Below are positions 4,718 through 47,744 of a DNA stretch of 64,000 nt, in pieces. Position 1 is the first letter of the stretch. Each line of letters opens with the position of its first letter. The stretch comes from Myxococcales bacterium (GTDB lineage Bacteria; Myxococcota_A; Polyangia; Palsa-1104; JAEUJZ01). The stretch spans positions 244,693 to 308,692 of the forward strand of contig JAEUKB010000025.1 of NCBI GenBank assembly GCA_016794365.1. The letters are read 5' to 3'. The notes beneath the pieces were generated by a model. The model saw only the letters and a list, made by a program, of their open reading frames with translations. It had not been told where the DNA came from and ran no database searches. Both the position numbers and the translations under genes were made by a program.

Positions 4718-4816
4718 GAATGAATACACATTCAGTAAAATGATTGAAAGTTCATTTTGATGAGCAAATATTCATTGTGATGAGCATGGCTTCAGTATAC
4801 TGAGTGAGTATTCAGT
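4718..4816. promoter_or_regulatory. Putative TetR operator/promoter region: AT-rich with palindromes
   Basis: Perfect 12-bp palindrome TCAGTATACTGA (4792-4803). GAATG-N6-CATTC (4718-4733). TGAATAC/GTATTCA inverted copies (4721-4727, 4807-4813). All lie just upstream of the tetR start at 4831. Confidence 0.4.
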
Positions 4817-4830
4817 CTGGAGCCCATGTG

Positions 4831-10083: not shown

Positions 10084-10229
10084 CGCAAGACTGCGCGCGA
10101 AAATGCCGAGGCTCTGCTTATCGGCAGGTGCTGCTTGTCCGCCCAGGTCTGGATTCGCAGCGCATTCCCACAGACTTCCGCAGTGCTGCCAAGAATGATG
10201 ATTTTCCGTCGAGCAGACTGCGATCAGAG

Positions 10230-16198: not shown

Positions 16199-16211
16199 AG
16201 AAAAAGACTCT

Positions 16212-26200: not shown

Positions 26201-27896
26201 CGGACCCTGACTGCGCACTCTGTCCAGAGTCGAGCTTCTTTTTTTGGACCTTTCCCAAGATGGTCGCCAGGATCGAGTTGTTGTCCTGTAACAGCGTGCC
26301 CGACATGCTGTTGCCTGCCGTGCTCTTCGGCGGAATCATGGCATCCATCAGAGAAGAGACTGCATCAGAGTCCCCCGGCTTGAGCCCTGGCAGCAGCGTG
26401 GTGGTGTCATCCTGTCCACCGCCCAGCAGCGGTGTATCCAGCATCTTGATTGCAGCCATCGCAACATCACCGATCGTTTTGGTGAGTACGTTGACGCCGC
26501 TTAGCATGTCGCCTGCCGTCAGGTTTCCGCTCTGAATCTTGGACATCATCTTGCTGCTGTTGTCCAAGTAGTTCGATGCAAAGAACCCAACTGCGACCAG
26601 CGGAAGAAGCTCGGGATAGGCCATGGCCAGTGGCATGGCGGCGTTGCTCAGGCTCTTGATCTGCGTGCTGGCGGACTTGGCGGCGCTGCTTCCGAACTGC
26701 AAACCTGTTGCACTTGGATTCATGCCGCTGGAAAACGGATTGCTCAGGCTGTCGCCGAAGCTGACGTAGTTGCTCCAAGAGTTCATCGGTGCCGACATGC
26801 CACCGATTTGCATCATCGAGCTGGCGCTGGACATGCCCGGAATCGCAGACATCCCAGAAGTGGGAGAGCCGGACATACCACTCTGTCCGCTCATACCACT
26901 CTGTCCAGCCATGCCACTCTGTCCGCCCATCCCGCCCATGCCACCAGGACTGCCGACGCCAATGGTGGGACCGAGGGTTCCGGTGGCTCCCATGTTGAGG
27001 AGTCCTCCGGTGTCCGGGGTTCCGCTCTGTCCGCCCATGCCTGCGCCGCTGTTCATTCCGTAGGTGTTGCCACTGCTCGATAGTGAGTTGGCACTTCCTA
27101 CGCCCGCTCCGGCCCCTGCTTGCGCACCACCTTGGGCACTCTTTCCTGCGCTGTTGCCACTGCTTGCCGCAGAGCCTTGTGGCGGCCCAGGAATCGCTCC
27201 GAACTGTAGATTGGCAGAGGTAATCGAAGTCGTGGGTGCAGAGATCGAAACAGAGACTCCGGTCAGGCTGATGTCCGATCCAAGGAGCTGAACACCTGTA
27301 GCACCACCGACGACAGCGACACCGCCTCCTACTGCGAGCATGGTGACGCTCTGCATGGCGTTCATGGACACCGAAAGACCGTTTAGACTGACTCCGTTTA
27401 GTCCTGATGCTGTGACCGATCCGGGCGAGCTAAGCGACAGATCCGCAAGGCTGGAAACGCTGGTCTGTCCCATGCTCTGTAGGCTGGTTCCCAGCGTAGA
27501 AGTCATGCGGATGTTTTCCGCTTGGACTGAAAAGTTGCGCGCATCGATCGAGACAGAGTCCGCAGTTTGGGTGATGACGCTGTCCCCCTGTGCGCCACTT
27601 ACGCGCGTGGTCAGCTTGACACCATCCATCGTGATCGACTGCTGATTGATGCCGCTCGCATCCAGCACTTCGATCGTCAGTCCGACCGTCTTGTCCATGA
27701 ACATGCGCAGATACAGCGGAAGCTGGGCGACCGGCTGCGCAGTGCCACCTTGAGGGGGAGTCGATCCACTCTGCGTCGATCCACTCTGCGTACCGGGGCC
27801 GGTCGTATTCTGCGTCGGTCCACTCTGCGTACCGGGGCCGGTTGTATTCTGCGTCGGTCCGCTCTGCGGAGACGTGGTGTTCATTGGGTCCGGCAT
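23190..27896 (-). CDS. Giant (1568 aa) Ser/Gly/Gln/Met/Ala-rich repetitive protein of unknown function
   Basis: A single uninterrupted ORF between tssF and the 704-aa gene. The N-terminus has a beta-solenoid-like stretch (VSLNGLSVSMNAMQSVTML..GVSVSISAP). Long tracts of GMGGQSGMSGQSG, SQNxQS, GSGSGS and PEAKPLPEAKPL follow. The last ~250 aa are non-repetitive. Confidence 0.6.
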   Translation of the reverse strand: MPDPMNTTSPQSGPTQNTTGPGTQSGPTQNTTGPGTQSGSTQSGSTPPQGGTAQPVAQLPLYLRMFMDKTVGLTIEVLDASGINQQSITMDGVKLTTRVSGAQGDSVITQTADSVSIDARNFSVQAENIRMTSTLGTSLQSMGQTSVSSLADLSLSSPGSVTASGLNGVSLNGLSVSMNAMQSVTMLAVGGGVAVVGGATGVQLLGSDISLTGVSVSISAPTTSITSANLQFGAIPGPPQGSAASSGNSAGKSAQGGAQAGAGAGVGSANSLSSSGNTYGMNSGAGMGGQSGTPDTGGLLNMGATGTLGPTIGVGSPGGMGGMGGQSGMAGQSGMSGQSGMSGSPTSGMSAIPGMSSASSMMQIGGMSAPMNSWSNYVSFGDSLSNPFSSGMNPSATGLQFGSSAAKSASTQIKSLSNAAMPLAMAYPELLPLVAVGFFASNYLDNSSKMMSKIQSGNLTAGDMLSGVNVLTKTIGDVAMAAIKMLDTPLLGGGQDDTTTLLPGLKPGDSDAVSSLMDAMIPPKSTAGNSMSGTLLQDNNSILATILGKVQKKKLDSGQSAQSGSEKSSTNSSQSGQNGESSQSKSQGSQNVQNSQNIQSNQNNQSSQNVQSSQNSQSTQKSLSGPGSTPSSTSSQSTSGASKTASGSSDLPSVQSLISQLDEKQLAALTPQLMPQLLTGMSNLLGPVGFVSVLGQVPGIGSLLSASSELGVLAAALLPPGFLPTADAKSSASATQSQTQGSAQSPAQNSTQSTAQSATPGAAQGVGQGTGQSMGQSMGQSMGQSVGQSMGQSPSSSPSGTAALAGAAIPGTTLQSQPASPSPATSQAGGQGAGSTGGSEAPTESQLNTLLTLGGLLRNQWQLGMPNMGQVLPGLLPKGLLGELLPGATGSGSPQSSQSGSQSGSQSGSQSGSQNSSQNSSSPGSQSVSPAAPGASTPSASGSGSGSGSGSGSAADDGGIDDAVNYAFQSTFTALGPLGVAAQSALKLLRPDASFLGGTLGLIGGGLSALGGLAAGQESSGSSSASSSSPAAASQSAASTSQSASQSASQMPSSAQAAPSASTAGSALGGSAAQLGSSSTQPAGGMGGAGSFTGASPIGSSGALSTGSPFFATEGFNPTATAATLPSLTTLPGMTPSTGGSAAKAPTASGSGSASGSGSASGSGFASGSGFASGGSAASSMAQAGAGVASLAGAAGGFGGLSNPFAAAATLQPNSGGMGGSGLTSLPAGNAALSGAGAASLLMNGNPTASLLGGGGSESSFMTGSPMSGIPGMNGASGIPGMNGASGVPGMNGASGMPGMDQLGSKAGMGGGGGTLLDEMKKKGSLFAGDYGTQFAKVLEKTYGTSSKGLSVTLNPIDTMTLMSSLFQGMMIPGQQPYETAGAFSMASKPKTVLPETELSSLLNYGQNVLQVQQQLVTFMKDLLTKTGSKSSAPASKTDAKEKTDSQAKTDSQAKTDSQAKSAPLANSDPKSAAPSSALGSTAQSAATSGLSSAVTAASAVTSAGIPFASDAKAALKQTLASSGQSAMQGDVKSAKDAVVPSAVGITVSSLTQGISAALAKKGGPLGS
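24371..24456. repeat. 18-bp tandem repeat (gaagcgaagccactgcct, ~4.7 copies) inside the giant gene
   Basis: Direct reading of the sequence. Other tandem arrays are nearby: 21-bp x3 at ~24020-24090, 12-bp x6 at 25525-25596, and (ctgN)n-type units at ~26040-26140. Confidence 0.85.
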
Positions 27897-27899: not shown

Positions 27900-29937
27900 T
27901 TACTGCGGACCTCGCGGAGTAGACGGAGTAGTGGGTCCACTCGGACTTGGCGAAGGTGTACTACTTGGCGGAGTCGTAGACGGACTTGTCTGTGGACTTG
28001 TCTGTGGACTTGTCTGTGGACCTGTCTGTGGACCTGTCTGTGGACCTGTCTGTGGACCCGGTGGGCGCGGTCCGCTTGTACCCGGCTGCGTCGTGGCTGG
28101 GACTCCTCCCGGTAGCGGCGGAGAGCCAGTAGGAGGCACTGCGGGCATTCCCAGCGGCACCACAATCTTGCGTCCAACCAGGGTTCCTGTTGTAACGCCA
28201 ACCGGAGGGATTCCCACCTGAAGCAGCAGGTTCCCTTCCGCAATCTTGACCAGCTCACTGTCGAACTGATTCAGTCGCTCGATCTCAAAGACCGGCTTTT
28301 CATTTTCATAGGAGTGCTGAACCGATGTGCGATTGATCGGCGTCTTGCCCAGCAGGAGCTGATCTCCTTGCGTCTCCATCGGGAGCTGCGCGGTCGCTCG
28401 CCACTCGCGGAACTGACAGATTTCTGCGCGATCAAAGTACAGCTCAACCAGGATGCGCTCGTATTTATATAATGGAAAATAGAACTGCCCAGGAATGGTG
28501 TTCGGGTGATATGGTGTTGTAATGATTTGATTCGCAAATAGCGGGATCATGACTTTGTACTTCGGCAGCATATTGCGAGGGTCAGGATAAAACTGATACG
28601 TCTCCTCTGTGCTGGTTCCTACTTCGCTAACGACGCGGCCTTCGATGGCTACTGGATATTTTGGTAGAATATATGGAGGAATGCGAAGCTCGGGATCACT
28701 TGCCAGCTCTAAAAATACAATTGTGTGGCAATGAAACTTGGCTGGAACCAGGCCATCATACACTTGGCGAATGTCTGTTTCGTCGCTGCGTCCGCTGAGT
28801 GTGATGCGATAGACACGACATAGCTCGCGCTGTGCTTCAAATGGAATTGCAATATCTTCTGCTGAAAAATCAAGCAAATCGAGCTGAAAATCAACACCTA
28901 CATTTGGGAAATATGGCTTGCTTGGAAATGTTCGATAATGAATCAAAAACTCTGGGCGTGGCATCATGAATGCCTTGGTTCTTTTCTGAAACTCACTTTC
29001 AAATTCGCTTTGAATTTCTGTGTTGAACAGATGATCGTGGCGAATTCCTAGCACTTTGTCGATATTATCTATCGGACGATTCTGGACCGCGCTTACAAAG
29101 TCGTTTAGGACGTTTTTTTGATATCTTGGATAGGATGGGTAATACGCATAAATACGATCAACATCGTGCGGAATGATGTCGAAGGGAGTCGGTCGCGGCT
29201 TGATTCCGTGAATCTGATAGACCTTGCGGGTGTAGTCGTACTGCCAGACCTTCCCCATCTCATCCAGACGCCACATCAGCAGGTCGTAAAAGCTGGCGCG
29301 CTCACTTTTGCGATGTTCGGAGTCACAGCCCAAAAAGATCATGGGCTGCACGATTCCTACATCCAGATCGGGATACTCCACCATGATGTGGGTGGTGCGA
29401 TGCGCATCGATCACTTGACGGAGAGACTTCTGCGTAAACAGCTCGCACGGAAAGTGTTGTCGCCACAGCACCTGCGCAGGATCCGCAAAGCGGAGAAAGT
29501 AGCGCCGATAGGACAACAGATCGTTTCCGAGCTTGGCAACATGCTCGGTCAGTGCGCTCTCTGTGACCAGTCCGTTTACCTCGATCGGAGTCGGTGGAAT
29601 ATTGAGATCTTGATCCGCGCGGAAGGCCTGAATCGTCATCCGCAGCTTGAGCATCGACTTCTGGCGAAACATCGTGATGATGCCATCGCGATCATCGCTC
29701 TGTAGCTCTGCGCTATCGGATACCAAGATCGTGAGCGATCCGGAAAAGCCACTGCTGCGCAGATCGAGATCAAAGTCGATCACGTTGTGACCACTTAGCA
29801 GGATCGGACGCGGAAGGGTGACAGAGCTTAGCTCGATGCGAAAGATGAGTCCTTCGCGATAGCTCTTGGCCGCGTCACACAGCGCATCAAACAGCGGTCT
29901 GTCTTCACGGATGGTATTACGCGCCACGACGCACCTC
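27900..29937 (-). CDS. Large unknown protein (~679 aa) between tssE and the giant gene; Tyr/Phe/Lys-rich body with Pro/Thr-rich C-terminal tail
   Basis: The ORF track gives 27900..30014. A GTG at 29937 preceded by GAGAGG gives a 21-nt overlap with tssE instead of 98 nt. The body is visibly more AT-rich (28300-29200) than its neighbours. The tail is (GPQT)6 then SPQTSPQTSPSTTPPSSTPSPSPSGPTTPSTPRGPQ. No family motif recognised. Confidence 0.5.
27981..28052. repeat. 12-bp x6 tandem repeat ggac(t/c)tgtctgt encoding the (QTGP)n tail
   Basis: Direct reading of the sequence. Confidence 0.9.
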
Positions 29938-30342
29938 TCGCTCGGTGTCTGGCTCGATCTGTACGTCGCCGCTGCACAGATGAAACAGGATCTTGAGCTG
30001 GCACGGAACCGCACCCTTGCGGGTCTTTAGGGAGCCGCGCAGATGGATGTGAAGACGCAGCTCTGCATCGCGACCTTTGCAGGACAGATCACGCAGTCGC
30101 AGACGTGACTCTAGCCGGAAAATGACATCTTCAATCTCACGCAAGATGGAAAGCTGCGCACCTTTGTTGCCCTGCTGCGCCAGATAGTCAGCGACGCCAT
30201 ACTGAATCAGTCTTGAGCTGTATCCTGGCCGCGCGCAGAGCAGGTTCTGTAGGTTCCGCATGACAGACTGCAGCTCATCATCTTGCGGAGGCGACTCTAG
30301 GAATCGGTTGAGGAATGACATGCGCAGCCTTCCTATCGCCAA
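29917..30342 (-). CDS. tssE: T6SS baseplate protein TssE (gp25/GPW lysozyme-like)
   Basis: 141 aa. SFLNRFLESPP...LQSVMRNLQNLLCARPG...YGVADY matches the gp25-like pattern, with tssK immediately upstream. Confidence 0.7.
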   Translation of the reverse strand: MAIGRLRMSFLNRFLESPPQDDELQSVMRNLQNLLCARPGYSSRLIQYGVADYLAQQGNKGAQLSILREIEDVIFRLESRLRLRDLSCKGRDAELRLHIHLRGSLKTRKGAVPCQLKILFHLCSGDVQIEPDTEREVRRGA

Positions 30343-31685: not shown

Positions 31686-32327
31686 TTACGTCGCTGGACC
31701 CTGTCGTCCCCAGTTCTTGGTGACCTTGCGAGTGGCCGAGGTCGCAAACAGCAGCGACTGAACCTCTGGCTTGGGAACCACCTTGAGCGTCAGCTTGTAG
31801 TTCTTCGGCGACTCGACATCGGTTCCGGCCTCTGCATCGATCTCCAGTCCGAGCGCTTCGCCGTCTTTCTGAATCTGTCCGCGCACCGATCTTCCAGCTG
31901 CGGCATCGGTTGCAGCCTGCGCAGAGTTTGAAAATGCAGCGTAGTACTTTTTGGAAAGCGGATCGTATTCATAGACCACGAATCCCACTTCACAATCGAC
32001 ATCGATCATCGATGCGTAGACCAGAGCGCTGATCGCTTGCTTGCTGGCAATCGAGACCTGCGCTTCAAAGATCAGCGGATCGGTATCACCGAGCGCCCAG
32101 GTGACGTTGGCCAGGACGCCAACAACGGTGAGCGCACCGATGGTTGCGGTGGCATTTGCGGTCAGTCCGGTTCCGGTGACTGCGGCCATCGGGCTGTTCA
32201 CCGTGAAGTCTGGCGTAAACGTCTCCATACCGATCTTGAGCGAAGTCAGAAAGCCAATCGTTGCTTGCTGATCTTTCTTAAAGTCGAAGCCCTGCTTCAC
32301 ATTCATCGCGCGGTTGTACTCGGCCAT
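31686..32327 (-). CDS. Candidate inner-tube (Hcp-like) protein, divergent, 213 aa
   Basis: Occupies the position directly downstream of tssB-tssC where hcp usually sits. Beta-rich, no TM. No Hcp motif could be confirmed by eye. Confidence 0.3.
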   Translation of the reverse strand: MAEYNRAMNVKQGFDFKKDQQATIGFLTSLKIGMETFTPDFTVNSPMAAVTGTGLTANATATIGALTVVGVLANVTWALGDTDPLIFEAQVSIASKQAISALVYASMIDVDCEVGFVVYEYDPLSKKYYAAFSNSAQAATDAAAGRSVRGQIQKDGEALGLEIDAEAGTDVESPKNYKLTLKVVPKPEVQSLLFATSATRKVTKNWGRQGPAT

Positions 32328-32389: not shown

Positions 32390-33880
32390 CTATCCCAGCC
32401 GTGACTCCAGCCGCAGCTCGACATCCATTCCTTCAAACTGAATGTGCGGCAGGATCGAGATCTTGCAGTCGTAGTATCCGAGCCGACCGGGCATCGGATT
32501 GACCTGGACTTGTGCGGCGCGGAAGGGGAAGGTCCGCATCGTCATATCGTCGGGACGGACTTCGGTGGTGACATACTGCTCAAGCCACGTTGACAGCACG
32601 CTCTGTACGTAGCCTGCGGTCGCGACATCACCGATGTTGTCACGCATGATGCTCTTGACGTAGTGCGCGATGCGGGCAATCGAAAACGTATAGGACAGGT
32701 TGCAGACAAGCTGCGCGTTTTCAGAGTCCTTCGGATCCTTGAACTTCTTCGGACGCTTGATGGACTGTGCGCTAAAGAACGTCGCTTCACCGGCTCCCTT
32801 GCGATAGACAAGGGGAATGATTCCGTTTCGCGAGTACTCCAGTTCGCGGTAGTCAGGAATGCAGATCTCGACGGGAATCCGCATCTCATCTTCGCCCCGG
32901 ATGTTGAACATATCAACCGGCAGACCGCTGATCATTCCGCCGCCTTTGGGACCGCGAATGTACTGACACCAGCCGGTGTTTTCAAACGAGCGAATTACAT
33001 TGCGCGCAAACAGCAGTGCAGAGCTTCCCCACAGATAGTTGCCGTGCTCTCCGCTGGTCTGTTCATGAAACGGAAGACCTGGACTGGGATTGGTTTCCGG
33101 GCTCCAAGGGAGTCGCACCACGTAGCGCGGGAAGGTCAGACCGATGTACGCACCCTCTTCGGATTCACGCAGAGACTGCCACTGAGAGTAGCGCGGCTGG
33201 CTGAGCAGACCGTCGAGATCTTTGATCGCTTCGACCTGCTGCATGTTGCCACAGCCCAAAAATTGCGGAGAGATCGATCCAATAAACGGTGAGTGACTGG
33301 CCGCCGCGATCTTCGACATGCTGCGCAGCCAGAACAGATCACGCGCTTGGGTTGTGAAGTCATACAGACCAATCAGCGCGCCGTAGGGACGACCACCGTA
33401 CTGATCGTACTCTGCGATGTAGACCTTCTCGAACAGCGCACTGCCAAAGATGTCGCTCGAGTTGTTTTCAAAGTCTTCAAACAGCTCGTCTTTGCTGACA
33501 TCAAGCAGCTCGACGGTGACGTTCGACTGGAAGTTGGCGTTTTCGACCAGCTGATCGATTCCGCGCCAGGTCGCTTCCATGTGCTGAAACTGTTGATGGT
33601 GAAAGATCTCGTTGAGCTGATCATTTACCATCGTGTCGATCTGGCGAACGACATCCAGGACTTTTCCTTTTTCGTAGCGACCACCGCTGTGATCGGTGTT
33701 GTACAGAATCGCTGCGAGTCCCGAGAGCATGCGATCTTCCAGCGAGACATCTTCATGCACCTCGCCAAACGTATCGCGAATCATCGGAACCAAGCTCACG
33801 TTCTTGGACTCCATATCCATGGTTGCGACAATCCGCTTGAGGATGGAGCCACTCTCTGTTGCGACGGGGGGTTGTGCCAT
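32390..33880 (-). CDS. tssC: T6SS contractile sheath large subunit TssC (VipB)
   Basis: 496 aa, directly downstream of tssB. Conserved-looking core (FENANFQSNVTVELLDVSKDEL..., GRPYGALIGLYDF, LTFPRYVVRLPW). Confidence 0.8.
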   Translation of the reverse strand: MAQPPVATESGSILKRIVATMDMESKNVSLVPMIRDTFGEVHEDVSLEDRMLSGLAAILYNTDHSGGRYEKGKVLDVVRQIDTMVNDQLNEIFHHQQFQHMEATWRGIDQLVENANFQSNVTVELLDVSKDELFEDFENNSSDIFGSALFEKVYIAEYDQYGGRPYGALIGLYDFTTQARDLFWLRSMSKIAAASHSPFIGSISPQFLGCGNMQQVEAIKDLDGLLSQPRYSQWQSLRESEEGAYIGLTFPRYVVRLPWSPETNPSPGLPFHEQTSGEHGNYLWGSSALLFARNVIRSFENTGWCQYIRGPKGGGMISGLPVDMFNIRGEDEMRIPVEICIPDYRELEYSRNGIIPLVYRKGAGEATFFSAQSIKRPKKFKDPKDSENAQLVCNLSYTFSIARIAHYVKSIMRDNIGDVATAGYVQSVLSTWLEQYVTTEVRPDDMTMRTFPFRAAQVQVNPMPGRLGYYDCKISILPHIQFEGMDVELRLESRLG

Positions 33881-33921: not shown

Positions 33922-34545
33922 TTAGGTTTCCTGCGTCGGCTGCGTGAGCGCTTTTTGCGAGCTAGGCAGCTTGTAGTCCGATAGCGCAGCCAGTTCCTTT
34001 TGCAGGGTCTTGAGCTGCTCTGGACTGCTCCAGATTTCTTGGATGACGCGACGTAGATCTTTGCGATTGTCGATGTTCGACTGCATCTCTAGCAGGAGCT
34101 TTCGTAGCAGCAGCAGGGAACGAATCTTGGGAACGTTGTCCGCGACATTTCCCGGTGTGAAGGAGCGGCGATTCTTGATCGGAATGCTCACTTCAAGGGT
34201 GGAATCGCTGCCTGGATCAATGCGGTTTGCCACCTTGAAGTTCAGGCTCATGCGCATGTTTTCCATGACGCTGTCCAGGTTCTTGTCGGTGAGCGAGCGC
34301 AGCCTGCGCGACTCCAGATCGACCTCGCGATCGGTGGCAGAGCCGCTGGACAGATCACCCAGTACCATCACGCGGAACGGCAGCTCCAACATCTGAGCGG
34401 TGCCTTGGATCTCTGTACGGTAGCGAAGGTTGATGCGAGAACGTGGGATGTCATCTTGAATCGACACGCCGATACTCCTACGAAGTGGTGTTTCCTTTGG
34501 GATTGCAACCGATATGCCAGCAGTTCGGAGTGCCCAAGGAATCAC
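33922..34545 (-). CDS. tssB: T6SS sheath small subunit TssB (VipA); GTG start
   Basis: INLRYRTEIQGTAQMLELPFRVMVLGDLS matches the TssB core (ELPFkmLVlGDftg). About 207 aa. Confidence 0.8.
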   Translation of the reverse strand: MIPWALRTAGISVAIPKETPLRRSIGVSIQDDIPRSRINLRYRTEIQGTAQMLELPFRVMVLGDLSSGSATDREVDLESRRLRSLTDKNLDSVMENMRMSLNFKVANRIDPGSDSTLEVSIPIKNRRSFTPGNVADNVPKIRSLLLLRKLLLEMQSNIDNRKDLRRVIQEIWSSPEQLKTLQKELAALSDYKLPSSQKALTQPTQET

Positions 34546-34616
34546 TGACAGCGCCAGGAGATCGTGTTGAATGAAGGCTGCGCTCAGTGACTGTTGCGAG
34601 CGAGCGCAGAGCGGAC

Positions 34617-34722
34617 GCTGCGCGCGAGCAGCGTGTCGGTTGGGAGTGTGTCCGTGCGGGTGATTTCGTCTTCACTGTGCGCGCGAGCAGTGCGCGAGCA
34701 GCGCGCGAGCACGGAGCGAGCA
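34617..34722. promoter_or_regulatory. Cluster of 4-5 GCGCGAGCA(G) repeats in the tssB / regulator divergent intergenic region (candidate enhancer/UAS sites)
   Basis: tgcgcgcgagcagcg at 34617-34631 and gcgcgcgagcagtgcgcgagcagcgcgcgagcacggagcgagc at 34677-34722. Confidence 0.35.
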
Positions 34723-34791
34723 TCCGCGCACAGGCTCCCAATGCCGTCGCTACGAGGCCGATCTCCGTTCGTCCTACGTGCTGCACTGCGC

Positions 34792-34807
34792 TGGCACAAA
34801 GACTGCT
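34792..34807 (+). promoter_or_regulatory. Sigma-54-type -24/-12 promoter candidate (TGGCAC-N5-CTGCT) upstream of the regulator gene
   Basis: TGGCACaaagaCTGCT has GG-N10-GC spacing. Predicted TSS is ~34818. GGAGG at 34832-34836 precedes the GTG at 34841. Confidence 0.45.
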
Positions 34808-34840
34808 ATTTCACCAAAGTAGGATGGTTCTGGAGGTCTT

Positions 34841-36454
34841 GTGAAGACCGCGCACAGTGATATTTCTCCGTCGGCACGAACGGCTCCCAATCCACTGGCA
34901 GAGCAGTTTGATTCTACTGAAGCAGATGTCCTTGCACTGGTGGTGCTGTGGTCCGCGCGTGAGCCTTCTCGCGTAGGAGAAGTCGCACTCCTTCCCGCAG
35001 AGTATCCAGTGTGGCTGTTCGGTCGCGATCCCGAGCAGCCGATCACAGAGTCTGTTCAGCGCACCAGCGCAGCCAGTGGCTTTGCTGATTCAGAAGAAGT
35101 ACGTCCTTCATCCAGCAGTCCGGCCAGTCGTGCGCAAGGCGTTGTGCGCTTTGTCAGACAGCGACCGGACGGCGTGTCTTCTGGAGAGCCTCCGCGCGCG
35201 CTCGCTGGAGAGAGCATTTCCCGACTTCAGCTTCATATGAGCCATCGTGAAGAGGGACTGTTTACCCAGAACGTCGGACGCTGCGCGCTGCTGGTGAATG
35301 GTCAGCCAACTCAGGCGGCGATGATTCATCCTGGGGATACGCTGTATCTGCGCAATCAGCTGCTGCTGTTGTGTATTCGCAGACCGATTCGACTTCAGCC
35401 GCTGCGCGCGTATCCCAGAGACAGGCTGCGTGATTTCGGGATTCCTGATGTAGACGGAATGATAGGAGAAAGTCCTGCGATGTGGCATCTGCGCGAGCGG
35501 CTCGCCGCGTGTGCGCGCAGTGATCAGAATGTCCTTGTGGTGGGGGAAAGCGGAAGCGGAAAGGAGCTGGCTGCGCAGGCGATTCATGCGATGTCTGTTC
35601 GTCGTGACAAGCCGCTCGTGGCCGACAACATCTCTGCGATTCCGTCCAGCTTGGCGGTGGCACTTTTGTTTGGTAACAAGCGCAACTTTCCAAACCCTGG
35701 CATGGAAGAGCGCGTGGGACTCATCGGTGCGGCAGATGGATCAATGCTGTTTCTTGATGAAATCGGAGACATGCCCGAAGAAGTTCAGCCGATGTTTCTG
35801 CGGGTGGCTGAGCGCAACGGAGAGTATTTTCGACTGGGTGAAGAGGGTCGAATTCGCCGCTCTGACTTTCGCTTGATCGGGGCCACCAATCGTCCAGAGC
35901 GGATGCGCTACGAGCTAAAGCGTCGTTTCCAGCGAGAGATTCGCGTTCCCAGCTTGAACGAACGGAAGGAAGACATTCCGCTGCTGATTCGTCACCTCCT
36001 GGAAGTACAAGCGCGCCAAGGTGATCCCAATGTCCTGAGCTTTTTTGATCCACAGACCCAAAGACCGCGTGTGCATCCGCTCTTGATTGAGCAGCTTGTG
36101 CGGCACACCTACGTGACCAATGTCTCGGAAGTGGAGTTTCTGCTGGGCCATGCGATGGCAGAGAGCGCAGGGGATGTGCTGACCCCGATTCGCGGTGCGC
36201 TGCCACAGCAGGGACGACCGATGCGTCCAGAGCTGGCTCCGCATCTGCCGCTGCATACCGCGCCACTCCGTCGCTTGGTTCCTGCGATTCCTTCCCCTGA
36301 GCGCGCGCAGCAAGCGCTAGATGACGCGCAAGGCAACGTGGTGAGAGCCGCTGCATCGCTTGGGATCAGCAGACATCAGCTCAACCGCATCATCCGGCGA
36401 CATGCTTTGGAAAAAAAACGCGGACCCAGATCGTCGTCGGCGATCAGCTCCTAA
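34841..36454 (+). CDS. FHA-domain AAA+ enhancer-binding-protein-like transcriptional regulator (NtrC/VasH-like) lacking the GAFTGA motif
   Basis: FHA-like GRCALLVNGQPTQAAMIHPGDTLYL. Walker A VVGESGSGKE, Walker B MLFLDEIGDM, RLIGATN. C-terminal Fis-type HTH. Where GAFTGA should be, the sequence is ALLFGNKRNFPNPG. Confidence 0.75.
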   Translation: MKTAHSDISPSARTAPNPLAEQFDSTEADVLALVVLWSAREPSRVGEVALLPAEYPVWLFGRDPEQPITESVQRTSAASGFADSEEVRPSSSSPASRAQGVVRFVRQRPDGVSSGEPPRALAGESISRLQLHMSHREEGLFTQNVGRCALLVNGQPTQAAMIHPGDTLYLRNQLLLLCIRRPIRLQPLRAYPRDRLRDFGIPDVDGMIGESPAMWHLRERLAACARSDQNVLVVGESGSGKELAAQAIHAMSVRRDKPLVADNISAIPSSLAVALLFGNKRNFPNPGMEERVGLIGAADGSMLFLDEIGDMPEEVQPMFLRVAERNGEYFRLGEEGRIRRSDFRLIGATNRPERMRYELKRRFQREIRVPSLNERKEDIPLLIRHLLEVQARQGDPNVLSFFDPQTQRPRVHPLLIEQLVRHTYVTNVSEVEFLLGHAMAESAGDVLTPIRGALPQQGRPMRPELAPHLPLHTAPLRRLVPAIPSPERAQQALDDAQGNVVRAAASLGISRHQLNRIIRRHALEKKRGPRSSSAISS

Positions 36455-36540
36455 CGCAATCGGCAGCCGCGCGCTGGAGTGATGCAGGTGTGTCGATTGG
36501 GAATCGATCAGGAGTCGATTGGGAATCGATTGGGAGTCAG

Positions 36541-37398
36541 CTACGGGGAACGAAAGACGTAGAACGGAACGCCTTCGGAGGAATAGCCGTACTTGCTGAC
36601 CGCGTTATCGCGCTCGGGTTCGCTGGTTGTATAGAAGTGATCATCCGATGCACCGGAATACAAGCGATGCAGCGGCTGCGCGTCACAGCGTGCGTCGGGC
36701 GCAACATATCCCAGCAGCGTTCCTGCGGTATTTAAGACTTCGCAGGTTGCGCTGGTGGTCAGAAAGTACAGACCGCTTGCCTTCTTACACAGGTACAGAC
36801 CCGTCAGTCCCTCTGCCGCGCTGCGATAAATGTAGAAGTAGTTCGCCGCTTCGATCGAAAACGGCGGAGTGCTCGCTGCGGTCTGATCCGTGGTGTAAAA
36901 GTGTCCTTTTCCCGCTGCGCGATGGACTGCGATGCGACAGCCTGCGATCGCACCTTCATCACAGACACCGTTGCAGTCATCGTCTTTCGCATTGCAGCTC
37001 TCTGCGGGCTGCTTACAGCTCTGGATTCCGTCGGTGCAGACCGTCTTCCCAACCGATTCGCAGCTGGTCTTACAGTCCGAACCTGCGATGCACAACGACA
37101 TGGACTCGCAGCCGTTGGCAACGCTCTTGTCTGAATCAAAGTAGCCGCTGCGACAGCTTGCGATCACGCACTCTCCGCGCTGACAGCCTGCTGTTGCGTT
37201 GGGAATCACGCAGGTGCGATCACAGCTTCCGCAGCTCTGTGGATCGCTCTGCAAGTCAACGCACAGACTACCGCAGCGCGAAAGCGAACCACACGATGGA
37301 TCCGTGGTCTTTTTTTCTGTGACCGGACGCGGAACCACCGGCGGTGGCGAGCACGCAGACAGGATCGCAAGCGCGAAGAGAGAGAGGTGTCTCATCAT
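36541..37398 (-). CDS. Cys-rich secreted lipoprotein with myxobacterial-type Cys repeats
   Basis: Signal + lipobox ILSACSPP. Modules such as CNAKDDDCNGVCDEG and paired Cys throughout. Start overlaps the upstream stop (ATGA). Confidence 0.55.
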   Translation of the reverse strand: MMRHLSLFALAILSACSPPPVVPRPVTEKKTTDPSCGSLSRCGSLCVDLQSDPQSCGSCDRTCVIPNATAGCQRGECVIASCRSGYFDSDKSVANGCESMSLCIAGSDCKTSCESVGKTVCTDGIQSCKQPAESCNAKDDDCNGVCDEGAIAGCRIAVHRAAGKGHFYTTDQTAASTPPFSIEAANYFYIYRSAAEGLTGLYLCKKASGLYFLTTSATCEVLNTAGTLLGYVAPDARCDAQPLHRLYSGASDDHFYTTSEPERDNAVSKYGYSSEGVPFYVFRSP

Positions 37399-38753
37399 GT
37401 CAGCATTCCGCGTAGGGGGTTGGATGTCTCGGCGCCGTTGAAGCCAAAGCTGGTCACTGGAAGTCCCAGCGCTTGCAGCGCAGTCAGCTGGGCTTTGCAC
37501 AGATTTCCGCCCGGTTCGCGCAGGTGAATGCCGGACTTTAGCCGTCCACAGCCGCCACCTGCCAGCAGGATCGGGTGTTCCTTTTCACCGTGCTGCCAGC
37601 CTTCTCCGTATTCGCTGGTGGCGTAGATGACGGCGCGCGAAAGCAGCGATTTTCCCGACGGTGAAGTGACTTTGGAAAATGCATCCAGAAACAGCGCGAA
37701 CGCTTCCATTTGGTACAGCGTGATTTTGCGGATGTTCTCCCAGTTCCCATCGTGACAGACCTTGTGCATGTCGTCTCCCACACCGAGGTTGGAAAAGACA
37801 TGGGTTGTCGCGGGAGAGGTCAGCATGAAGGAAAACGCGCGCGTCAGACCACAGTTGACCGCAATCGCCAGCAGCTCTGCCATCTGCGTGGTCTTTTTGT
37901 GGAGATCTGTTTCATCGCGCGGGCGGCCCGGCATCTTGCACGCTCCGGCGGTCATTTGCAGTCGGCGCTGAATCTCTGCAAGCTGTTCCAAGTGCGCTTC
38001 CAGCCGCATCGCATCGCGCGTTCCCAGCTGTCCCTTGAGCTGCTTGGCATCCGCGAGCACAGCATCCAGCGCTTTGGCTCTGCGTCCCAGCTCGGGCGAC
38101 TCTCCCGGTATGGAAAAGAGCTGATCGTACAGCTCTGCGGGACTCTGGATTGGCGGATTCACAGAGTCTGGACCGTTATAGGAGATCGCGTTCCAGTGTC
38201 CGTAGTCATGAAAGCGCGAGCGGCTCACTCCCACATGAAGGGAACGAAAGCGCGGCGCGGACGAGTAGAACTTCGGATGCTTGGCCACCACCTGATCAAG
38301 CGAGGGTCGCAGCGCAGTCAGCGTGTGCGTGGGATGATCGAAGCCTTCGGGACGTGGCCGATCGCCGGTCATCGCAACCATGAAGCCGCGCATGTGTCCA
38401 TCGCTCTGTCCGGGCGGAGCGGAAGGAATCTCTGTCTTGGGTTCCAGTCCAGTGGCAACACAGACTTTGTGTCGTTCCAGCGGCTTTAGGAGTGGACTGT
38501 ATCCAAACCCTTCTCCAACCTGCGACGGAGTCCACAGATCTTGACCGACTCCTTGCATGCCTCCGTGCTTGCCATTCCAGGGCAGTCCGTTGGCCCAGAA
38601 AAACAGTCCGAAGAACGGATCCTCTGGCATTCCGTCCGCGTACGCACCGTTGCCATCGAACATGGCTTCCAGCGGCGGTAGCGCCAACGACACCGCGAGG
38701 CCATACGCCGTACCCCGCAAAAAGCTTCGACGAGACAGTTGCATGCGCTTCAC
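37395..38753 (-). CDS. DUF1552-family Tat-secreted protein
   Basis: Tat signal SRRSFLRGTAYGLAV. The DUF1552/DUF1592 pairing with the next gene is a known co-occurring pair in Planctomycetes, Acidobacteria and Myxococcota. Confidence 0.55.
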   Translation of the reverse strand: MKRMQLSRRSFLRGTAYGLAVSLALPPLEAMFDGNGAYADGMPEDPFFGLFFWANGLPWNGKHGGMQGVGQDLWTPSQVGEGFGYSPLLKPLERHKVCVATGLEPKTEIPSAPPGQSDGHMRGFMVAMTGDRPRPEGFDHPTHTLTALRPSLDQVVAKHPKFYSSAPRFRSLHVGVSRSRFHDYGHWNAISYNGPDSVNPPIQSPAELYDQLFSIPGESPELGRRAKALDAVLADAKQLKGQLGTRDAMRLEAHLEQLAEIQRRLQMTAGACKMPGRPRDETDLHKKTTQMAELLAIAVNCGLTRAFSFMLTSPATTHVFSNLGVGDDMHKVCHDGNWENIRKITLYQMEAFALFLDAFSKVTSPSGKSLLSRAVIYATSEYGEGWQHGEKEHPILLAGGGCGRLKSGIHLREPGGNLCKAQLTALQALGLPVTSFGFNGAETSNPLRGMLT

Positions 38754-40384
38754 GGCATCACCTCACTAGACGCGGCAGTTCGGAATCCTTCACTCTTGAC
38801 CAACTCGACGAGCAGCTCACGGAACTGATAGCCCGATTCCGCAAAGCGCTCTGTAAGTGCGGACAGCACCGCTTCGTCTCCTTGTCCATCCAGTCGCGCG
38901 CTGGCATGACGGAATACTTGTTTGACCAGACAGCTTCCGACGCGCGGATCAAAGGCCAGCCGCGCTGCCAGATCGCGTGAGTCTGACATCGACTCTCCTT
39001 CAATCACGGCATCTGTCTGTAACGGAGCCCCATCGATGTTGGTACGGAACTGACCGATGGCATCGAAGTGCTCGAAGAGGAATCCGGGCGGATCCATCAG
39101 TGCATGACAGCTATAACAAGCGGGATTTTTGCGGTGCTCTTCCAGTCGCTCACGCAGGCTCTTGGGCATGCTTCCCATGTTGTCAGCAAGCGCTGGAACA
39201 TTGGGCGGAGCAGGCGGCACCACCAAGCACAGCACGCGCTCTCGCAGATACTTTCCGCGTCGCGTGGGCGAGGTATCGGTCGGATGCGCATTCATCGTCA
39301 GGATGGCACCAAAGGACAGGACTCCGGCGCGCTCTCCTTGAGGGGGAAGGTTCACTGCCGCGAACGCCACTTCGCTGGCATCGGGCGCATCGACTTGATA
39401 CAGCTTCGCCAGCTCTTTGTTTACAAAGGTGCGACGGGTGGAAAAGATGCCGCGAATGTCAGTTTCCCGACGGAACACAAAGTCATCAACCAAGAGCTGA
39501 ACTTCCGTTCGCATCGCACTGATCAGGGACTTGGTATAGGCCGGATAGAGCTTCGGATCGCGCTCCACATGCGACAGCGCGCTTAGCTCGAAGTACTGAT
39601 CGAAGAAGCTCTGCACCGCTTCGCGTGCGCGCGAAGATCCCAGCATTCGTCGTGCTTGTGTCTCTAGGCTCTGGGAATCGAGCAATTCTCCGCGCTCTGC
39701 CGCTGCCAGCAGCTCTTCATCGGGAACGGTGTTCCACAGCAGAAAGGACAGCCGCGAGGCCATCTCATAGGAGTCGTAGCGCCGACGAGAAGCTGGCTTT
39801 TCGGGGTCGGGTTCACCCACGTCCATGCGATACAGAAAGCGCGGCGACTGAAGCATTCCGTACACGACCAGACGCAGCCCGCGATAGACATCACCTTCAG
39901 CAGTATCACGGACAACAGAGAGCCAGCGATCGACATCCGCTTGCGCAAGGGGACGACGAAACAGCTGCCGACCGAGCTTGCGTACAAAGCCACTTACGCA
40001 GTCATCGCTGACGGTCTTGGGAGCGCAGCCGATCAGCGCATCGCGGCGCTTGGTGTCCGAAAAGATCGCAGAAGAGATCTGCGCAGCGGACTCTGCATAC
40101 TGCTGCGTTCCTTGCTCCGAAAGCTGCGTTGTTGCGGCCCCGATCGAATGGAACAGATAGGGATTGGTATCGGGCTCCAGCGCGGTCTGCGGTAGGCCTT
40201 GGCCCAGCACATCGGCGATGGCGTTGCGGTACTGCGTGGTCGTCAGCCTCGGCATCGTGGGTGCCGACGGCTCAAATGGCGCCGTCGCTTGCGGCTGCCC
40301 CTGCTCCGTAGGCTTGCAGTGAAGGGATGAAAGCGGCAGAGCCGCACAGACCAACCAGAGCGCTCGCTTCATGATGCGCAACAT
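38750..40384 (-). CDS. DUF1592/DUF1588/DUF1585-family protein with haem-binding CxxCH motif (partner of DUF1552)
   Basis: Signal peptide and CYSCHALMDPPGFLFEHFDAIG (a CxxCH haem-binding motif). 544 aa. Confidence 0.55.
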   Translation of the reverse strand: MLRIMKRALWLVCAALPLSSLHCKPTEQGQPQATAPFEPSAPTMPRLTTTQYRNAIADVLGQGLPQTALEPDTNPYLFHSIGAATTQLSEQGTQQYAESAAQISSAIFSDTKRRDALIGCAPKTVSDDCVSGFVRKLGRQLFRRPLAQADVDRWLSVVRDTAEGDVYRGLRLVVYGMLQSPRFLYRMDVGEPDPEKPASRRRYDSYEMASRLSFLLWNTVPDEELLAAAERGELLDSQSLETQARRMLGSSRAREAVQSFFDQYFELSALSHVERDPKLYPAYTKSLISAMRTEVQLLVDDFVFRRETDIRGIFSTRRTFVNKELAKLYQVDAPDASEVAFAAVNLPPQGERAGVLSFGAILTMNAHPTDTSPTRRGKYLRERVLCLVVPPAPPNVPALADNMGSMPKSLRERLEEHRKNPACYSCHALMDPPGFLFEHFDAIGQFRTNIDGAPLQTDAVIEGESMSDSRDLAARLAFDPRVGSCLVKQVFRHASARLDGQGDEAVLSALTERFAESGYQFRELLVELVKSEGFRTAASSEVMP

Positions 40385-42482: not shown

Positions 42483-45400
42483 ATGTTAGATCGAGAACGG
42501 GAAGATGCTCTGCTTGCGCGAGCGGTAGCCAGTGGGCTGCTGTCCGCTGCGGATCTATCGCAGTCCCTAGAAAGTGATCTTCCGACGCTGTCGCAACCAG
42601 AAGAGGCGCAAGGGAGTCCTTCTGTATCCGGTTTGGCAACGCTGCGCTTTGGTCCTCGTCTTCATCGTCTGATTCAGCAAGGCAAGCTGTCTACCGAACA
42701 GATCGATCGACTGAATGCAGAGCTGGCTGCGCTGGATCGGACCTTGGATGGCAGTGCGCTCTCTGCTTCTCCGCATCCGGTTCGGGTGTCTGTGAAGCGT
42801 CCCGATTGGCTGGATGGCTGGCCACAGTACGAAGTGATCGAGCAGATCGGCCAAGGGGGAATGGGAACGGTCTATCGAGGCAGAGATCTCCGTCTGTCGC
42901 GAGAAGTTGCACTGAAGTTCATCAGCGTGACAGACGAGCAGCTCCGGAAGCGATTCCTTACCGAAGCGCGAGCGCAGGCACGACTAAACCACGAACACAT
43001 CTGCAAGGTCTTTGAAGTCGGTGAGGTCAGCGGGCATCCCTACATCGCGATGGAGCTGGTCAAAGGGAGTCCTCTTTCGCAGCTTCATCCGCAGCTCAAT
43101 CGGGAACAGAAGCTGACCTTGATGCGAGACATCGCGCTCGCGATTCATACCGCGCACAGCCAGGGAATCATCCACCGGGACATGAAGCCTTCCAATGTCA
43201 TGGTGGAAAGTCAGGAAGACGGTCGGTTGCGACCTGTGGTGATGGACTTTGGACTGGCGCGCGATCAGCGCAGCGAGGAACACCTCACCATGACGGGAAT
43301 GGTGATGGGAACTCCTGCATATATGTCGCCAGAGCAGGCGGCAGGAGAAGTGGCGCGGATTGATCGGCGCAGTGATGTCTACAGCTTGGGAGCGATGCTG
43401 TACGAGCTTTTGTCTGGACAGCTTCCGTTTGCTGGATCGACGACCGTTGCGATGATTCTGCAAGTGCTTCAGACCGATCCAGCTCCGCTGCGGAAAGTGA
43501 ATGCAGAGCTTCCGCTGGATCTGGAAACGATGGTCTCGAAGGCCATGGCGAAAGAGCCACATCGTCGCTACGAAACGGCAAAGGCACTGGCAGAAGATCT
43601 GGATCGATTCCTAAACGGAGAGCCGATTCTGGCGCGCAAGGCATCGATCTTGTATGTCGCGTATCGTCGCGCGCAGAAACACAAAGCACTGGTTTCGATC
43701 TCGGCGTTCGGCATCCTGACCGTGATGGTTCTATTGACGCTGTTTGTGCGCGGTCGGATGCTGGCTGCGCGTGATCGTGCGCGAGCAGAGCAAGCAGCGC
43801 AGCTATCGCAGCAGCTTGGTCAGGACATCACGCAGATGGAGCTGTTTATGCGTGCGGCGTATCTGCTTCCGGCGCATGACATCTCGCGTGAGCGTGCGGT
43901 GATTCGGAATCGGGTGGCGCAGCTGGCTACGCAGCTTCAGACCCTGGATCAGGATCTGCGCGGACCGGCTCACTATGCGCTTGGTCGGGGCCACTTGGTG
44001 TTAGAAGAATTCGAGCTTGCGCGGAGCCAGCTTGAGGCTGCGCTGCGTCTGAAATACGATCGACCAGAGGTCCATTATGCGCTCGGTTATGCGCTGGGAC
44101 AGCTCTATCAAGTGCGGCTGCAAAAGAACAAGCAAGAGTACGATCCTGCGGTGCGAACAGAGCGACGCAAACAGATCGATGCAGAGCTGCTGATTCCTAC
44201 GCGCGAGCACCTGGCACAGAGTCGAACTGCGCGACTGGATTCCAACTTTCTCGCAGAAGGATGGCTGTTTTATTATCAAGGAGAGCTGGACAAAGCGCGC
44301 AATGCGGCCCGGTCTGCGCTGGCCCAGTCGCCTTGGGATTATCAGCCGCTACAGATCCTCTTGTCCGTCGAGATTCAGGAGTTTGTAAGCTTTTACTTTC
44401 AAGGGAAGCGCACGCAGACAGAGCAGGCCGCACAGCGCGTACAAGAGAGCATTTTGCGGCTGAAAGAGACAGCGCGGAGTCTTCCCTTTGTCTATTCCAT
44501 TCAGTCCCTGTTCTATCGAGAGCGCGTGTTTCAGGATCTGTTTGAACATCGTCCACTTGATCAGAGCCTACAGCTGATGTTGACAGCCAGCAGAGAACAG
44601 GAAGTGGTGACTCCCTTCGAGCTGGACATTCTGATCGATCGCGCAGTGGGATACAGCTATTTGGCGCGACAGAAGCAAGAGCTGGGACAAGATCCTCGTC
44701 CTGCTGTTCGCGAGGCGGAAGCGATTCTGGCTGCGCGCGAAAAGCGAGGCGCTACGTCATCCATGGTGAGCCTGCTGCGCAACAACTTCCAGCTCACGCT
44801 GGCAGCCTATGCAGAACAGATCGGAGACGATCCGCGTCCGTATCTGCGTAAGGCTGCGGTGATCTTGGAAGACACGATACGCAGCAGTCCTCCGTCCTTT
44901 GTGATGTGGAATGATCTGTGCGCAACCCAGTGTGAGCTGGGACGACAGCAGACCTTGTTTGGGGAAGACAGCAGTGAGCATCTGTCACGCGCAAAACAAG
45001 CGTGTGCGCGCACCATCTCCCTTACGCCGCAGTATTACATTGGCTATCAGAATCAGACCTGTGTTCTGCTGGAAGAAGCCAAGGCAAGCTTGCGTATCGG
45101 TCAGCCGATGGATCTCTCTGCTGCACAGCAGTCTCTGACGCTGAGTCTGGCGCGCAAGCCCGACGACTCTGCATCGCTGGTGCAGGAAGTGGATCTACAT
45201 CTTTTGTCCGCGCGGATGCTGCACTTGCAAAAGCAGAGTCCCCATCCTGCGCTGACACAAGCGAAGCAGAGTGTGCAGAAGCTACGGTCACTGCATCCTT
45301 CGCTGGCTTCGATTCCGCTTCTGAATGCGATGCTCCTGCGTGCGCAAGTTGAGCTGTCTGTGGACTCTGTTTCCGATGCAGAGATCGCGCAGGGTCTGGC

Positions 45401-45632
45401 TGATCTCACGGCTGCGATTCAGCGTCAGCCGCATGAGGCTACGCTGCGCTTTGCCAAAGCATGTATTTTGCTTGCGCGCAGCCTGGCCGGTCGCAGTCCC
45501 AATCGCAGCGCAGATCTGCAAGCGGCGCAGACACTCTTGATCGATGTACGATCCGTCCTTGGCAAGCAAGCAGAGTATGCGCGGACTTGGTCGCTCCTTA
45601 CCACGTTGCGGCTGCCTGGAAAGAAGCCGTAG
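42483..45632 (+). CDS. Ser/Thr protein kinase with TM segment and long TPR/helical-repeat C-terminal region (1049 aa)
   Basis: GQGGMGTVYRG, ALKFI, HRDMKPSNVMV, DFGLAR, GTPAYMSPEQ, TM ALVSISAFGILTVMVLLTLFV, then ~600 aa of TPR-like helical repeats. Confidence 0.85.
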   Translation: MLDREREDALLARAVASGLLSAADLSQSLESDLPTLSQPEEAQGSPSVSGLATLRFGPRLHRLIQQGKLSTEQIDRLNAELAALDRTLDGSALSASPHPVRVSVKRPDWLDGWPQYEVIEQIGQGGMGTVYRGRDLRLSREVALKFISVTDEQLRKRFLTEARAQARLNHEHICKVFEVGEVSGHPYIAMELVKGSPLSQLHPQLNREQKLTLMRDIALAIHTAHSQGIIHRDMKPSNVMVESQEDGRLRPVVMDFGLARDQRSEEHLTMTGMVMGTPAYMSPEQAAGEVARIDRRSDVYSLGAMLYELLSGQLPFAGSTTVAMILQVLQTDPAPLRKVNAELPLDLETMVSKAMAKEPHRRYETAKALAEDLDRFLNGEPILARKASILYVAYRRAQKHKALVSISAFGILTVMVLLTLFVRGRMLAARDRARAEQAAQLSQQLGQDITQMELFMRAAYLLPAHDISRERAVIRNRVAQLATQLQTLDQDLRGPAHYALGRGHLVLEEFELARSQLEAALRLKYDRPEVHYALGYALGQLYQVRLQKNKQEYDPAVRTERRKQIDAELLIPTREHLAQSRTARLDSNFLAEGWLFYYQGELDKARNAARSALAQSPWDYQPLQILLSVEIQEFVSFYFQGKRTQTEQAAQRVQESILRLKETARSLPFVYSIQSLFYRERVFQDLFEHRPLDQSLQLMLTASREQEVVTPFELDILIDRAVGYSYLARQKQELGQDPRPAVREAEAILAAREKRGATSSMVSLLRNNFQLTLAAYAEQIGDDPRPYLRKAAVILEDTIRSSPPSFVMWNDLCATQCELGRQQTLFGEDSSEHLSRAKQACARTISLTPQYYIGYQNQTCVLLEEAKASLRIGQPMDLSAAQQSLTLSLARKPDDSASLVQEVDLHLLSARMLHLQKQSPHPALTQAKQSVQKLRSLHPSLASIPLLNAMLLRAQVELSVDSVSDAEIAQGLADLTAAIQRQPHEATLRFAKACILLARSLAGRSPNRSADLQAAQTLLIDVRSVLGKQAEYARTWSLLTTLRLPGKKP

Positions 45633-47709: not shown

Positions 47710-47744
47710 TCCGGCACTGTATTCGCTTGGATGAAGCGCAGCAA

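Follow-up and report, generated by a model that had tools for sequence, protein, structure and literature searches.

Organization of the tssB/regulator spacer

The subject of this analysis is the spacer between two divergently transcribed genes in a 64-kb window (the whole stretch of DNA that was analysed, i.e. 64,000 nt of contig JAEUKB010000025.1 from a Myxococcales bacterium), together with the regulator encoded on one side of the spacer and the type VI secretion system (T6SS) cluster on the other. The spacer is 373 bp long and separates tssB (VipA) on the minus strand (33922..34467; Pfam T6SS_VipA, E 2e-39) from a regulator gene on the plus strand (34841-36454), which encodes a protein of 537 aa from a GTG start codon preceded by GGAGG at 34832-34836. 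The T6SS cluster is divergent and extends from ~34.5 kb down to ~11 kb (11068-34467, minus strand). Because TssB orthologues are called at 181-183 aa in the gene tables of related loci, we re-assigned the tssB start codon from GTG 34545 to GTG 34467, which is preceded by AGGAG at 34479-34475 (minus strand) and gives a protein of 181 aa; the mechanically listed tssB open reading frame (ORF; 33922-34545) would engulf the promoter facing tssB.

The sigma-54 promoter pattern TGGCAY-N5-YTGCW has just two matches in the 64-kb window, both of which lie in the spacer and point outward, 35-38 nt from the two start codons. On both strands, i.e. in 128 kb, ~0.6 matches would be expected, as against the two observed in a single spacer. 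The -24/-12 element facing tssB (34519->34504, minus strand; TGGCAT-ATCGG-TTGCA, TGGCATATCGGTTGCA) matches the sigma-54 consensus at 10 of 11 positions and lies 38 nt upstream of the likely tssB start codon; tssB transcription is expected to start near 34493 (minus strand). The element in front of the regulator gene (34792-34807, plus strand; TGGCAC-AAAGA-CTGCT) places the expected transcription start near 34818 (plus strand). A preliminary description of this DNA had reported a TGGCAC-N5-CTGCT element before the regulator gene, and the pattern search recovered it; the same description had found no convincing sigma-54 promoter facing tssB, which TGGCATATCGGTTGCA shows to be wrong. A consensus scan of 34400-34900 gave no sigma-70-like promoter, where the consensus was that of E. 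coli and could miss myxobacterial promoters. Similarly, no terminators were found in the spacer, and the spacer region had no Rfam match at E<=1.

Between the two promoters, GCGCGAGCA is present in four exact copies (34622, 34681, 34692 and 34703), and a fifth GCGAGCA core lies at 34716, in agreement with the four to five repeats counted previously between the regulator promoter and tssB. In the whole window, GCGCGAGCA occurs seven times compared to 3.0 expected, a count that none of 100 shuffled sequences reached. The upstream activating sequence (UAS) array at 34679-34722 is made up of four GCGCGCGAGCA-type units of 11 bp each (4.0 copies of period 11 in Tandem Repeats Finder). The GCGAGCA cores of its units are at 34683, 34694, 34705 and 34716, successive units are one helical turn apart, and the 11-bp phasing places the four half-sites on one face of the helix. 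The array is located ~90 nt upstream of the -24 element of the regulator and ~180 nt upstream of that of tssB. Moreover, a distal enhancer block (34598..34632) with one GCGCGAGCA copy (34622-34630) lies ~105 nt upstream of the tssB -24 element.

Two further repeats were observed at the locus. A second 11-bp tandem array, GTCGATTGGGA in 4.3 copies, occupies 36492-36538, in the convergent gap just past the regulator stop codon, and the related TCGGTTGGGAG is present inside the enhancer region at 34636-34646.

Promoters and repeats are conserved in orthologous loci

We compared the spacer with those of eight related tssB/regulator loci (L081, L088, L090, L092, L093, L094, L095 and L096), whose regulators are at least ~64% identical. 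The gene tables of L081, L088, L090 and L092 give the same divergent tssB/regulator layout, with regulator identities of 66-74%. L093-L096 were added by a metagenome scan based on the L1-loop segment (45 aa); blastn showed synteny between L093 and the window, and L094-L096 have spacer elements as in the window. All eight loci keep the two promoters and the repeats, while the remaining spacer is unalignable. Specifically, a minus-strand GG-N10-GC element precedes tssB in L081, L088, L090, L092, L094, L095 and L096, and in seven further orthologous loci a plus-strand TGGCAY-N5-CTGCW element lies about 43-75 nt ahead of the approximate start of the regulator gene. The -12 part of the regulator promoter reads CTGCT in seven of eight loci and CTGCA in L092. 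The repeats are present in three forms, i.e. GTGCGCGAGCA in three copies in L081 and in two copies with a shortened third unit in L096; the perfect palindrome TGCTCGCGAGCA in L088 and L092; and a GTGCGCGCAC variant in L090, L094 and L095.

L093 is a close relative, with coding DNA that is 85-89% identical to that of the window. In the L093 spacer, conservation is limited to five islands: the tssB leader with its promoter, the distal repeat block, the 11-bp array, the regulator promoter, and the segment with the ribosome-binding site and start codon of the regulator. The block 34460-34526 is ~97% identical (two substitutions and one 1-nt gap) and the neighbouring spacer is scrambled; similarly, the distal enhancer block at 34598..34632 is kept but not its flanks. 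At the level of sequence, the L093 comparison is a clean phylogenetic footprint of two putative promoters and one putative enhancer.

The helix-turn-helix (HTH) sequences of the regulators form three groups that mirror the three repeat types, a correlation that is confounded by phylogeny; this match is the pattern that would be expected if each regulator binds its own spacer. Because the repeats are kept across orthologous loci and the repeat type changes with the HTH sequence, they are very probably binding sites of the regulator, as the preliminary description had proposed.

In several orthologous T6SS loci, a second family paralogue of ~500-540 aa from the FGNRR[N/H]FPNPG clade is encoded directly downstream of the T6SS-linked regulator (L088, 7690-9198; L089, 2201-3709; L096-L098). 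The window has no such second copy.

A comparable organization was found for paralogues next to Ser/Thr kinase genes. In L085, L101, L104 and L105, the paralogues are divergent from Ser/Thr kinase genes, and the order promoter, palindromes, promoter recurs: TGGCACCGnGCTTGCT faces the kinase gene, a CGGCA-type -24/-12 element (CGGCAT or CGGCAC) faces the regulator in all four, and TTGTGCGCACA-type palindromes lie between the promoter elements. These palindromes differ from the repeats of the tssB loci, and the HTH sequence of the paralogues differs accordingly. For 29 non-redundant genes of the family, the 550-nt upstream regions contain sigma-54-like elements at a density of 1.60/kb, as against 0.15/kb elsewhere in the same loci, a ~10-fold enrichment. 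In the FGNK clade, which contains the gene studied here, 14 of 18 loci have a sigma-54-like element (23 hits vs 1.5 expected). Genes of canonical GAFTGA type are rare in this setting, with only two in ~45 family loci, and tblastn and motif searches of the window gave no second sigma-54-type AAA+ gene. In L083, a canonical FHA/AAA+/HTH activator (3573-4997, minus strand; Pfam FHA, GAYSGA) is encoded near a family member, and therefore both types coexist in one organism. In total, we are confident that the spacer is a bidirectional sigma-54 enhancer-promoter module and not a sigma-54-independent one.

The regulator combines an AAA+ activator core with a divergent FHA fold

Pfam assigned three domains to the regulator, i.e. 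Sigma54_activat (PF00158; residues 207-355, E 8.8e-35, well above the gathering score), AAA_lid_14 and HTH_8. The AAA+ sigma-54-activator domain with its lid spans residues ~207-449 (35459..36187, plus strand). In an alignment to ZraR and NtrC1, it contains Walker A (GESGSGKE, 35543-35566), Walker B (LFLDEIG), RLIGATN and arginine fingers in MRYELKRRF, and these ATPase motifs (Walker A/B, GATN, arginine fingers) are invariant or nearly so among family members. The C-terminal Fis-type HTH (GNVVRAAASLGISRHQLNRIIRRH; 36296..36403, plus strand) corresponds to HTH_8 and is modelled as three helices at residues 486-521. The complete AAA+ core and Fis-type HTH described earlier are present in full. 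ZraR is the best sequence match in the PDB (phmmer, E 2e-34), none of the NCBIfam equivalog models came near its cut-off for the regulator, and the full-length AlphaFold2 model has a predicted local distance difference test score (pLDDT) of 87.

The N-terminal region had been described as a forkhead-associated (FHA) domain. Pfam gave no family for the N-terminal 206 aa, even at E<=10, and PF00498 was not matched; a family profile of the region searched against PDB sequences gave FHA proteins only, at E 0.07-0.7. The AlphaFold2 model of the region has a pLDDT of 81, and its top Foldseek matches in the PDB are all FHA domains (GarA, OdhI, CT664 and DgcB; target TM 0.74-0.84, E ~6e-5); among the best 50 PDB matches, the nameable descriptions are essentially all FHA. 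The domain covers residues ~28-185 (34922..35395, plus strand) with a disordered insertion at ~62-100. G61-R62 and S127-R128, which contain the phosphate-binding Arg and Ser-Arg, do not vary across the family; in the pocket, an invariant Gln130 takes the position of the canonical His and the Ser-x-Asn-Gly turn reads Arg-Cys-Pro. The assignment rests on structure prediction because Pfam found nothing. We conclude that, as modelled, the N-terminal domain is by fold an FHA domain, with its eleven-strand beta-sandwich, but an atypical one; the earlier assignment holds for the predicted structure and finds no counterpart in Pfam.

An NFPNPG-type loop replaces GAFTGA in the family

At the position of GAFTGA, the regulator reads NFPNPG (35684-35701, plus strand), consistent with the previously noted absence of GAFTGA. 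From LFG to LFLDEIG, the regulator aligns to ZraR and NtrC1 without gaps, and therefore the L1 insertion keeps the canonical length. In the model, the loop with its flanks bridges the helices at residues 269-277 and 293-297 with a pLDDT of ~90.

A search of 5.8 billion proteins gave 2011 matches at E<=1e-10. Among the best 120 of these, which extend down to 42% identity, all 120 read LFGN[KR][KR]NFPNPGM[ED]ER or a close variant and all have an N[FY]PNPG-type loop. Column identity is 0.89 for NFPNPG and 0.90 for Walker A, compared to 0.73 across the AAA+ domain, and only the Walker motifs are more conserved than the loop. When the N-terminal domain alone was used as a profile, 639 clusters (50% identity) were matched at E<=1e-10 in a set of 1.84 billion representatives. 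GAFTGA is absent from all 92 listed representatives of this wider family that span the AAA+ region; they share the consensus [N/D/G]-[F/Y]-P-N-x-G, in which the aromatic varies between F and Y only. In PspF, F-to-Y is said to be the one substitution that keeps GAFTGA functional, a finding attributed to Zhang et al. in 2009. The source names given for the homologues point to Polyangia/Myxococcales metagenome bins, and none of the papers searched contained NFPNPG, NYPNPG or FPNPGM. Together, the sequence comparisons place the regulator in a large and so far undescribed family of myxobacteria with an NFPNPG-type loop.

A sequencing error in the GAFTGA codons was considered as an alternative source of the motif. 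It is ruled out by the presence of the same, (nearly) invariant loop in the best 120 homologues, and the suggestion that correction of such an error might restore GAFTGA is excluded with it.

Proposed mechanism and alternatives

We suggest that the minus-strand promoter drives the T6SS operon that begins with tssBC and that the plus-strand promoter drives the regulator gene. The regulator would bind the repeats through its Fis-type HTH, and DNA binding of the spacer repeats by the adjacent regulator is likely. The FHA-fold domain would keep the regulator inactive until a phosphothreonine signal is provided by a Ser/Thr kinase, and we regard kinase/FHA gating of this kind as somewhat probable. 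Upon relief of inhibition, the AAA+ domain would assemble into an ATP-hydrolysing ring that remodels the sigma-54 holoenzyme at both promoters, resulting in positive autoregulation as well as T6SS induction; the L1 loop specific to the family, [N/D/G]-[F/Y]-P-N-x-G, would take over the role of GAFTGA in contacting sigma-54. Judged from sequence, direct remodelling of sigma-54 by the variant loop is the single most likely mechanism, if a tentative one whose chance we set just under even. It is favoured because the full-length L1 loop is constrained with an aromatic that is F or Y only, the ATPase is intact, and members of this clade are found at enhancer distance from conserved -24/-12 promoters without a canonical activator nearby. 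For the reading as a whole, i.e. a bidirectional sigma-54 module driven by an FHA-gated regulator acting via a variant loop, the chances are about even. The broader proposal, in which [N/D/G]-[F/Y]-P-N-x-G is a second, naturally evolved solution for engaging sigma-54 and a large FHA-gated Myxococcota family opens sigma-54 promoters without GAFTGA, is possible, although its chance is somewhat below even.

Several observations weigh against direct activation. In published mutagenesis, activation is in most cases lost when GAFTGA is altered, above all at the central Phe and Thr (PMC3162934), and a Thr-to-Pro substitution inactivated B. japonicum NifA (PMC4641369). The characterised enhancer-binding protein (EBP) homologues that lack GAFTGA, i.e. 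TyrR, DhaR, HupR and VpsR, are all sigma-54-independent (PMC3162934, PMC6158489), and a preprint describes a Caulobacter NtrC without the motif (bioRxiv 10.1101/2023.06.06.543975). Within the family, the FGNRR... clade has no promoter enrichment (2 of 11 loci), and the FHA domain, unrecognised by Pfam, is without the canonical Asn of the phosphothreonine-peptide pocket. Finally, myxobacteria encode dozens of canonical activators able to serve these promoters from elsewhere, with 73 in Sorangium.

The main rival keeps the promoters sigma-54-dependent and makes the NFPNPG protein, unable to remodel, a gatekeeper that occupies the enhancer (as a blocker, an anti-activator or a subunit of mixed rings) for a canonical GAFTGA activator that acts in trans. 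The mutational intolerance of GAFTGA and the inactive NifA variant (PMC3162934, PMC4641369) are in line with such a role, as are the many canonical activators encoded in polyangial genomes and the second family paralogue directly downstream in some orthologous loci, which suggests hetero-oligomers. However, a pure blocker needs neither an intact ATPase nor a full-length L1 loop conserved like Walker A, and both tandem paralogues are themselves of the NFPNPG type; moreover, the repeats and the HTH of the adjacent regulator change together, and the ~45 family loci contain almost no genes for canonical activators. We consider a gatekeeper less likely than direct activation. The preliminary description had instead inferred sigma-54-independent activation. 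Here the regulator would act as an activator or repressor, like TyrR, HupR and VpsR, on a sigma-70-type tssB promoter and the -24/-12 matches would be irrelevant, as is the rule for all characterised GAFTGA-less EBP homologues (PMC3162934, PMC6158489). That proposal rested on the apparent lack of a sigma-54 promoter for tssB, yet a conserved near-consensus -24/-12 element faces tssB in every orthologous locus examined. No sigma-70-like sites were found in the spacer, although the E. coli-tuned scan could have missed myxobacterial ones; the repeats, 90-180 nt upstream of the -24 elements, are at enhancer distance and do not overlap -35/-10 positions; and, among the sigma-70-type homologues, at least VpsR and YplP have a clear deletion within the GAFTGA element (PMC3162934), whereas the loop length is retained here. 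Ranked third, sigma-54 independence appears improbable.

It might also be argued that the promoter-like matches and repeats are chance features of a GC-rich spacer, given that the motifs are short and the genome has a G+C content of 58%. Against this stand the concentration of both pattern matches in one spacer in the correct orientation, the conservation of the elements in eight loci with otherwise unalignable spacers, and the 10-fold enrichment over 29 loci. An origin by chance is hardly credible and, as far as sequence conservation can tell, effectively refuted.

Relation to known systems

V. cholerae VasH is a T6SS-encoded sigma-54 activator. Similarly, in P. aeruginosa the activator genes for Sfa2 and Sfa3 lie in or next to T6SS clusters, and -24/-12 promoters precede the T6SS operons (PMC3804575, PMC8855297). 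The arrangement of VasH and Sfa2, in which the activator gene adjoins the T6SS cluster and a -24/-12 promoter is present at the first operon, was found in the window and in L081, L088, L090, L092 and L093. Sfa2 and Sfa3 carry the canonical GAFTGA (PMC3804575), whereas the regulator described here has NFPNPG and a divergent FHA-fold sensor; in addition, its own gene has a sigma-54 promoter, and this promoter and tssB have one enhancer in common.

With the canonical EBPs NtrC, ZraR, NtrC1 and PspF, the regulator shares an AAA+ core that is 30-45% identical, with Walker A/B, sensor I, arginine fingers, an L1 insertion of equal length, the lid and the Fis-type HTH, as well as an enhancer ~100-200 nt upstream of a -24/-12 promoter. 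It differs from them at five of the six GAFTGA positions, with the aromatic shifted by one, and has a 7-residue deletion before the arginine-finger helix. Of the features that define a canonical EBP, PF00158, the ATPase motifs, the L1 insertion and a cognate -24/-12 promoter with enhancer are all present, and GAFTGA is absent. The FHA-domain EBPs of Myxococcus xanthus, reportedly described by Jelsbak et al. in 2005, are said to combine FHA, AAA+ and HTH domains in Myxococcota, presumably fed by Ser/Thr kinases, with an FHA domain recognisable by Pfam and with GAFTGA; the activator in L083 is an example of this canonical type, and the present family has the same architecture but a Pfam-silent FHA domain and no GAFTGA. 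PexR of M. xanthus, a non-canonical EBP, was considered as a relative and rejected, since it has GAFTGA and a GAF domain.

TyrR, DhaR, HupR, VpsR and Caulobacter NtrC resemble the regulator in having a sigma-54-activator-type AAA+ domain without GAFTGA (PMC3162934, PMC6158489, bioRxiv 10.1101/2023.06.06.543975). The TyrR/VpsR group acts at sigma-70 promoters, and at least VpsR and YplP have a clear deletion in the GAFTGA element (PMC3162934); by contrast, a full-length loop is encoded here beside conserved sigma-54 promoters. The regulator lacks the features of that group, with a loop that is neither deleted nor degenerate and no sigma-70-like sites in the E. coli consensus scan. The nearest precedent for a non-canonical loop tied to sigma-54 promoters by comparative genomics is DVUA0100 of D. 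vulgaris (GVATGV), and the GAFPGA (Thr-to-Pro) variants of Sorangium and Desulfovibrio also have a proline after the aromatic (PMC4641369). These are isolated proteins with one to three substitutions, whereas the family here comprises hundreds of 50%-identity clusters with an invariant motif of its own and a dedicated N-terminal domain.

GAFTGA is regarded as the hallmark of sigma-54 activators, and homologues that lack it are discarded in genome surveys (e.g. PMC3162934). If the variant loop contacts sigma-54, the known sequence space for remodelling widens, the sigma-54 regulons of Myxococcota have been under-counted, and the working rule that lack of GAFTGA means sigma-54 independence is overturned. 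If it does not, the family would be a new class of ATPase that gates sigma-54 enhancers. The 373-bp module would link Ser/Thr kinase signalling to a non-canonical T6SS.

Kinase genes, the T6SS cluster and other genes of the window

Ser/Thr kinase genes are frequent neighbours of the paralogues, and three are present in the window (2449-4071, minus strand; 10128-11099, plus strand; 42483-45632, plus strand). The second is directly next to the TssG end of the T6SS cluster; because its match covers the C-terminal half of the kinase domain only, the start codon may have been placed wrongly. All three are candidate inputs for the FHA domain. The FHA-mediated, kinase-signalled control of the T6SS proposed earlier is plausible to the extent that Ser/Thr kinases are encoded in the window and beside many paralogues.

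In the T6SS cluster, tssB is followed by VipB/TssC (32390-33880, minus strand; Pfam). Further along the minus strand, Pfam recognised TssK, TssE, a weak TssF, DotU, an IcmF-like protein, an IglE_N lipoprotein, an AMP-binding enzyme and TssG. The cluster is non-canonical in containing the IglE_N lipoprotein (15767-16327) and the AMP-binding enzyme (13886-15709), and the matches to TssF, TssG and IcmF are weak only. Three large ORFs of the cluster had no family match (704 aa, 27900-30014; 1568 aa, 23190-27896; 213 aa, 31686-32327), and ClpV, Hcp and VgrG were not recognised among the scanned ORFs.

Elsewhere in the window, an ORF at 57064-58557 (plus strand) encodes a group II intron reverse transcriptase/maturase (RVT_1 and GIIM), and an extracytoplasmic function (ECF)-type sigma factor fused to a SnoaL-like domain is encoded at 46741-48039 (minus strand). 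Finally, a DUF1552 gene is paired with a DUF1592/1588/1595/1585/1587 gene at 37395-40384 (minus strand), a pair that is typical of Planctomycetes and Myxococcota.

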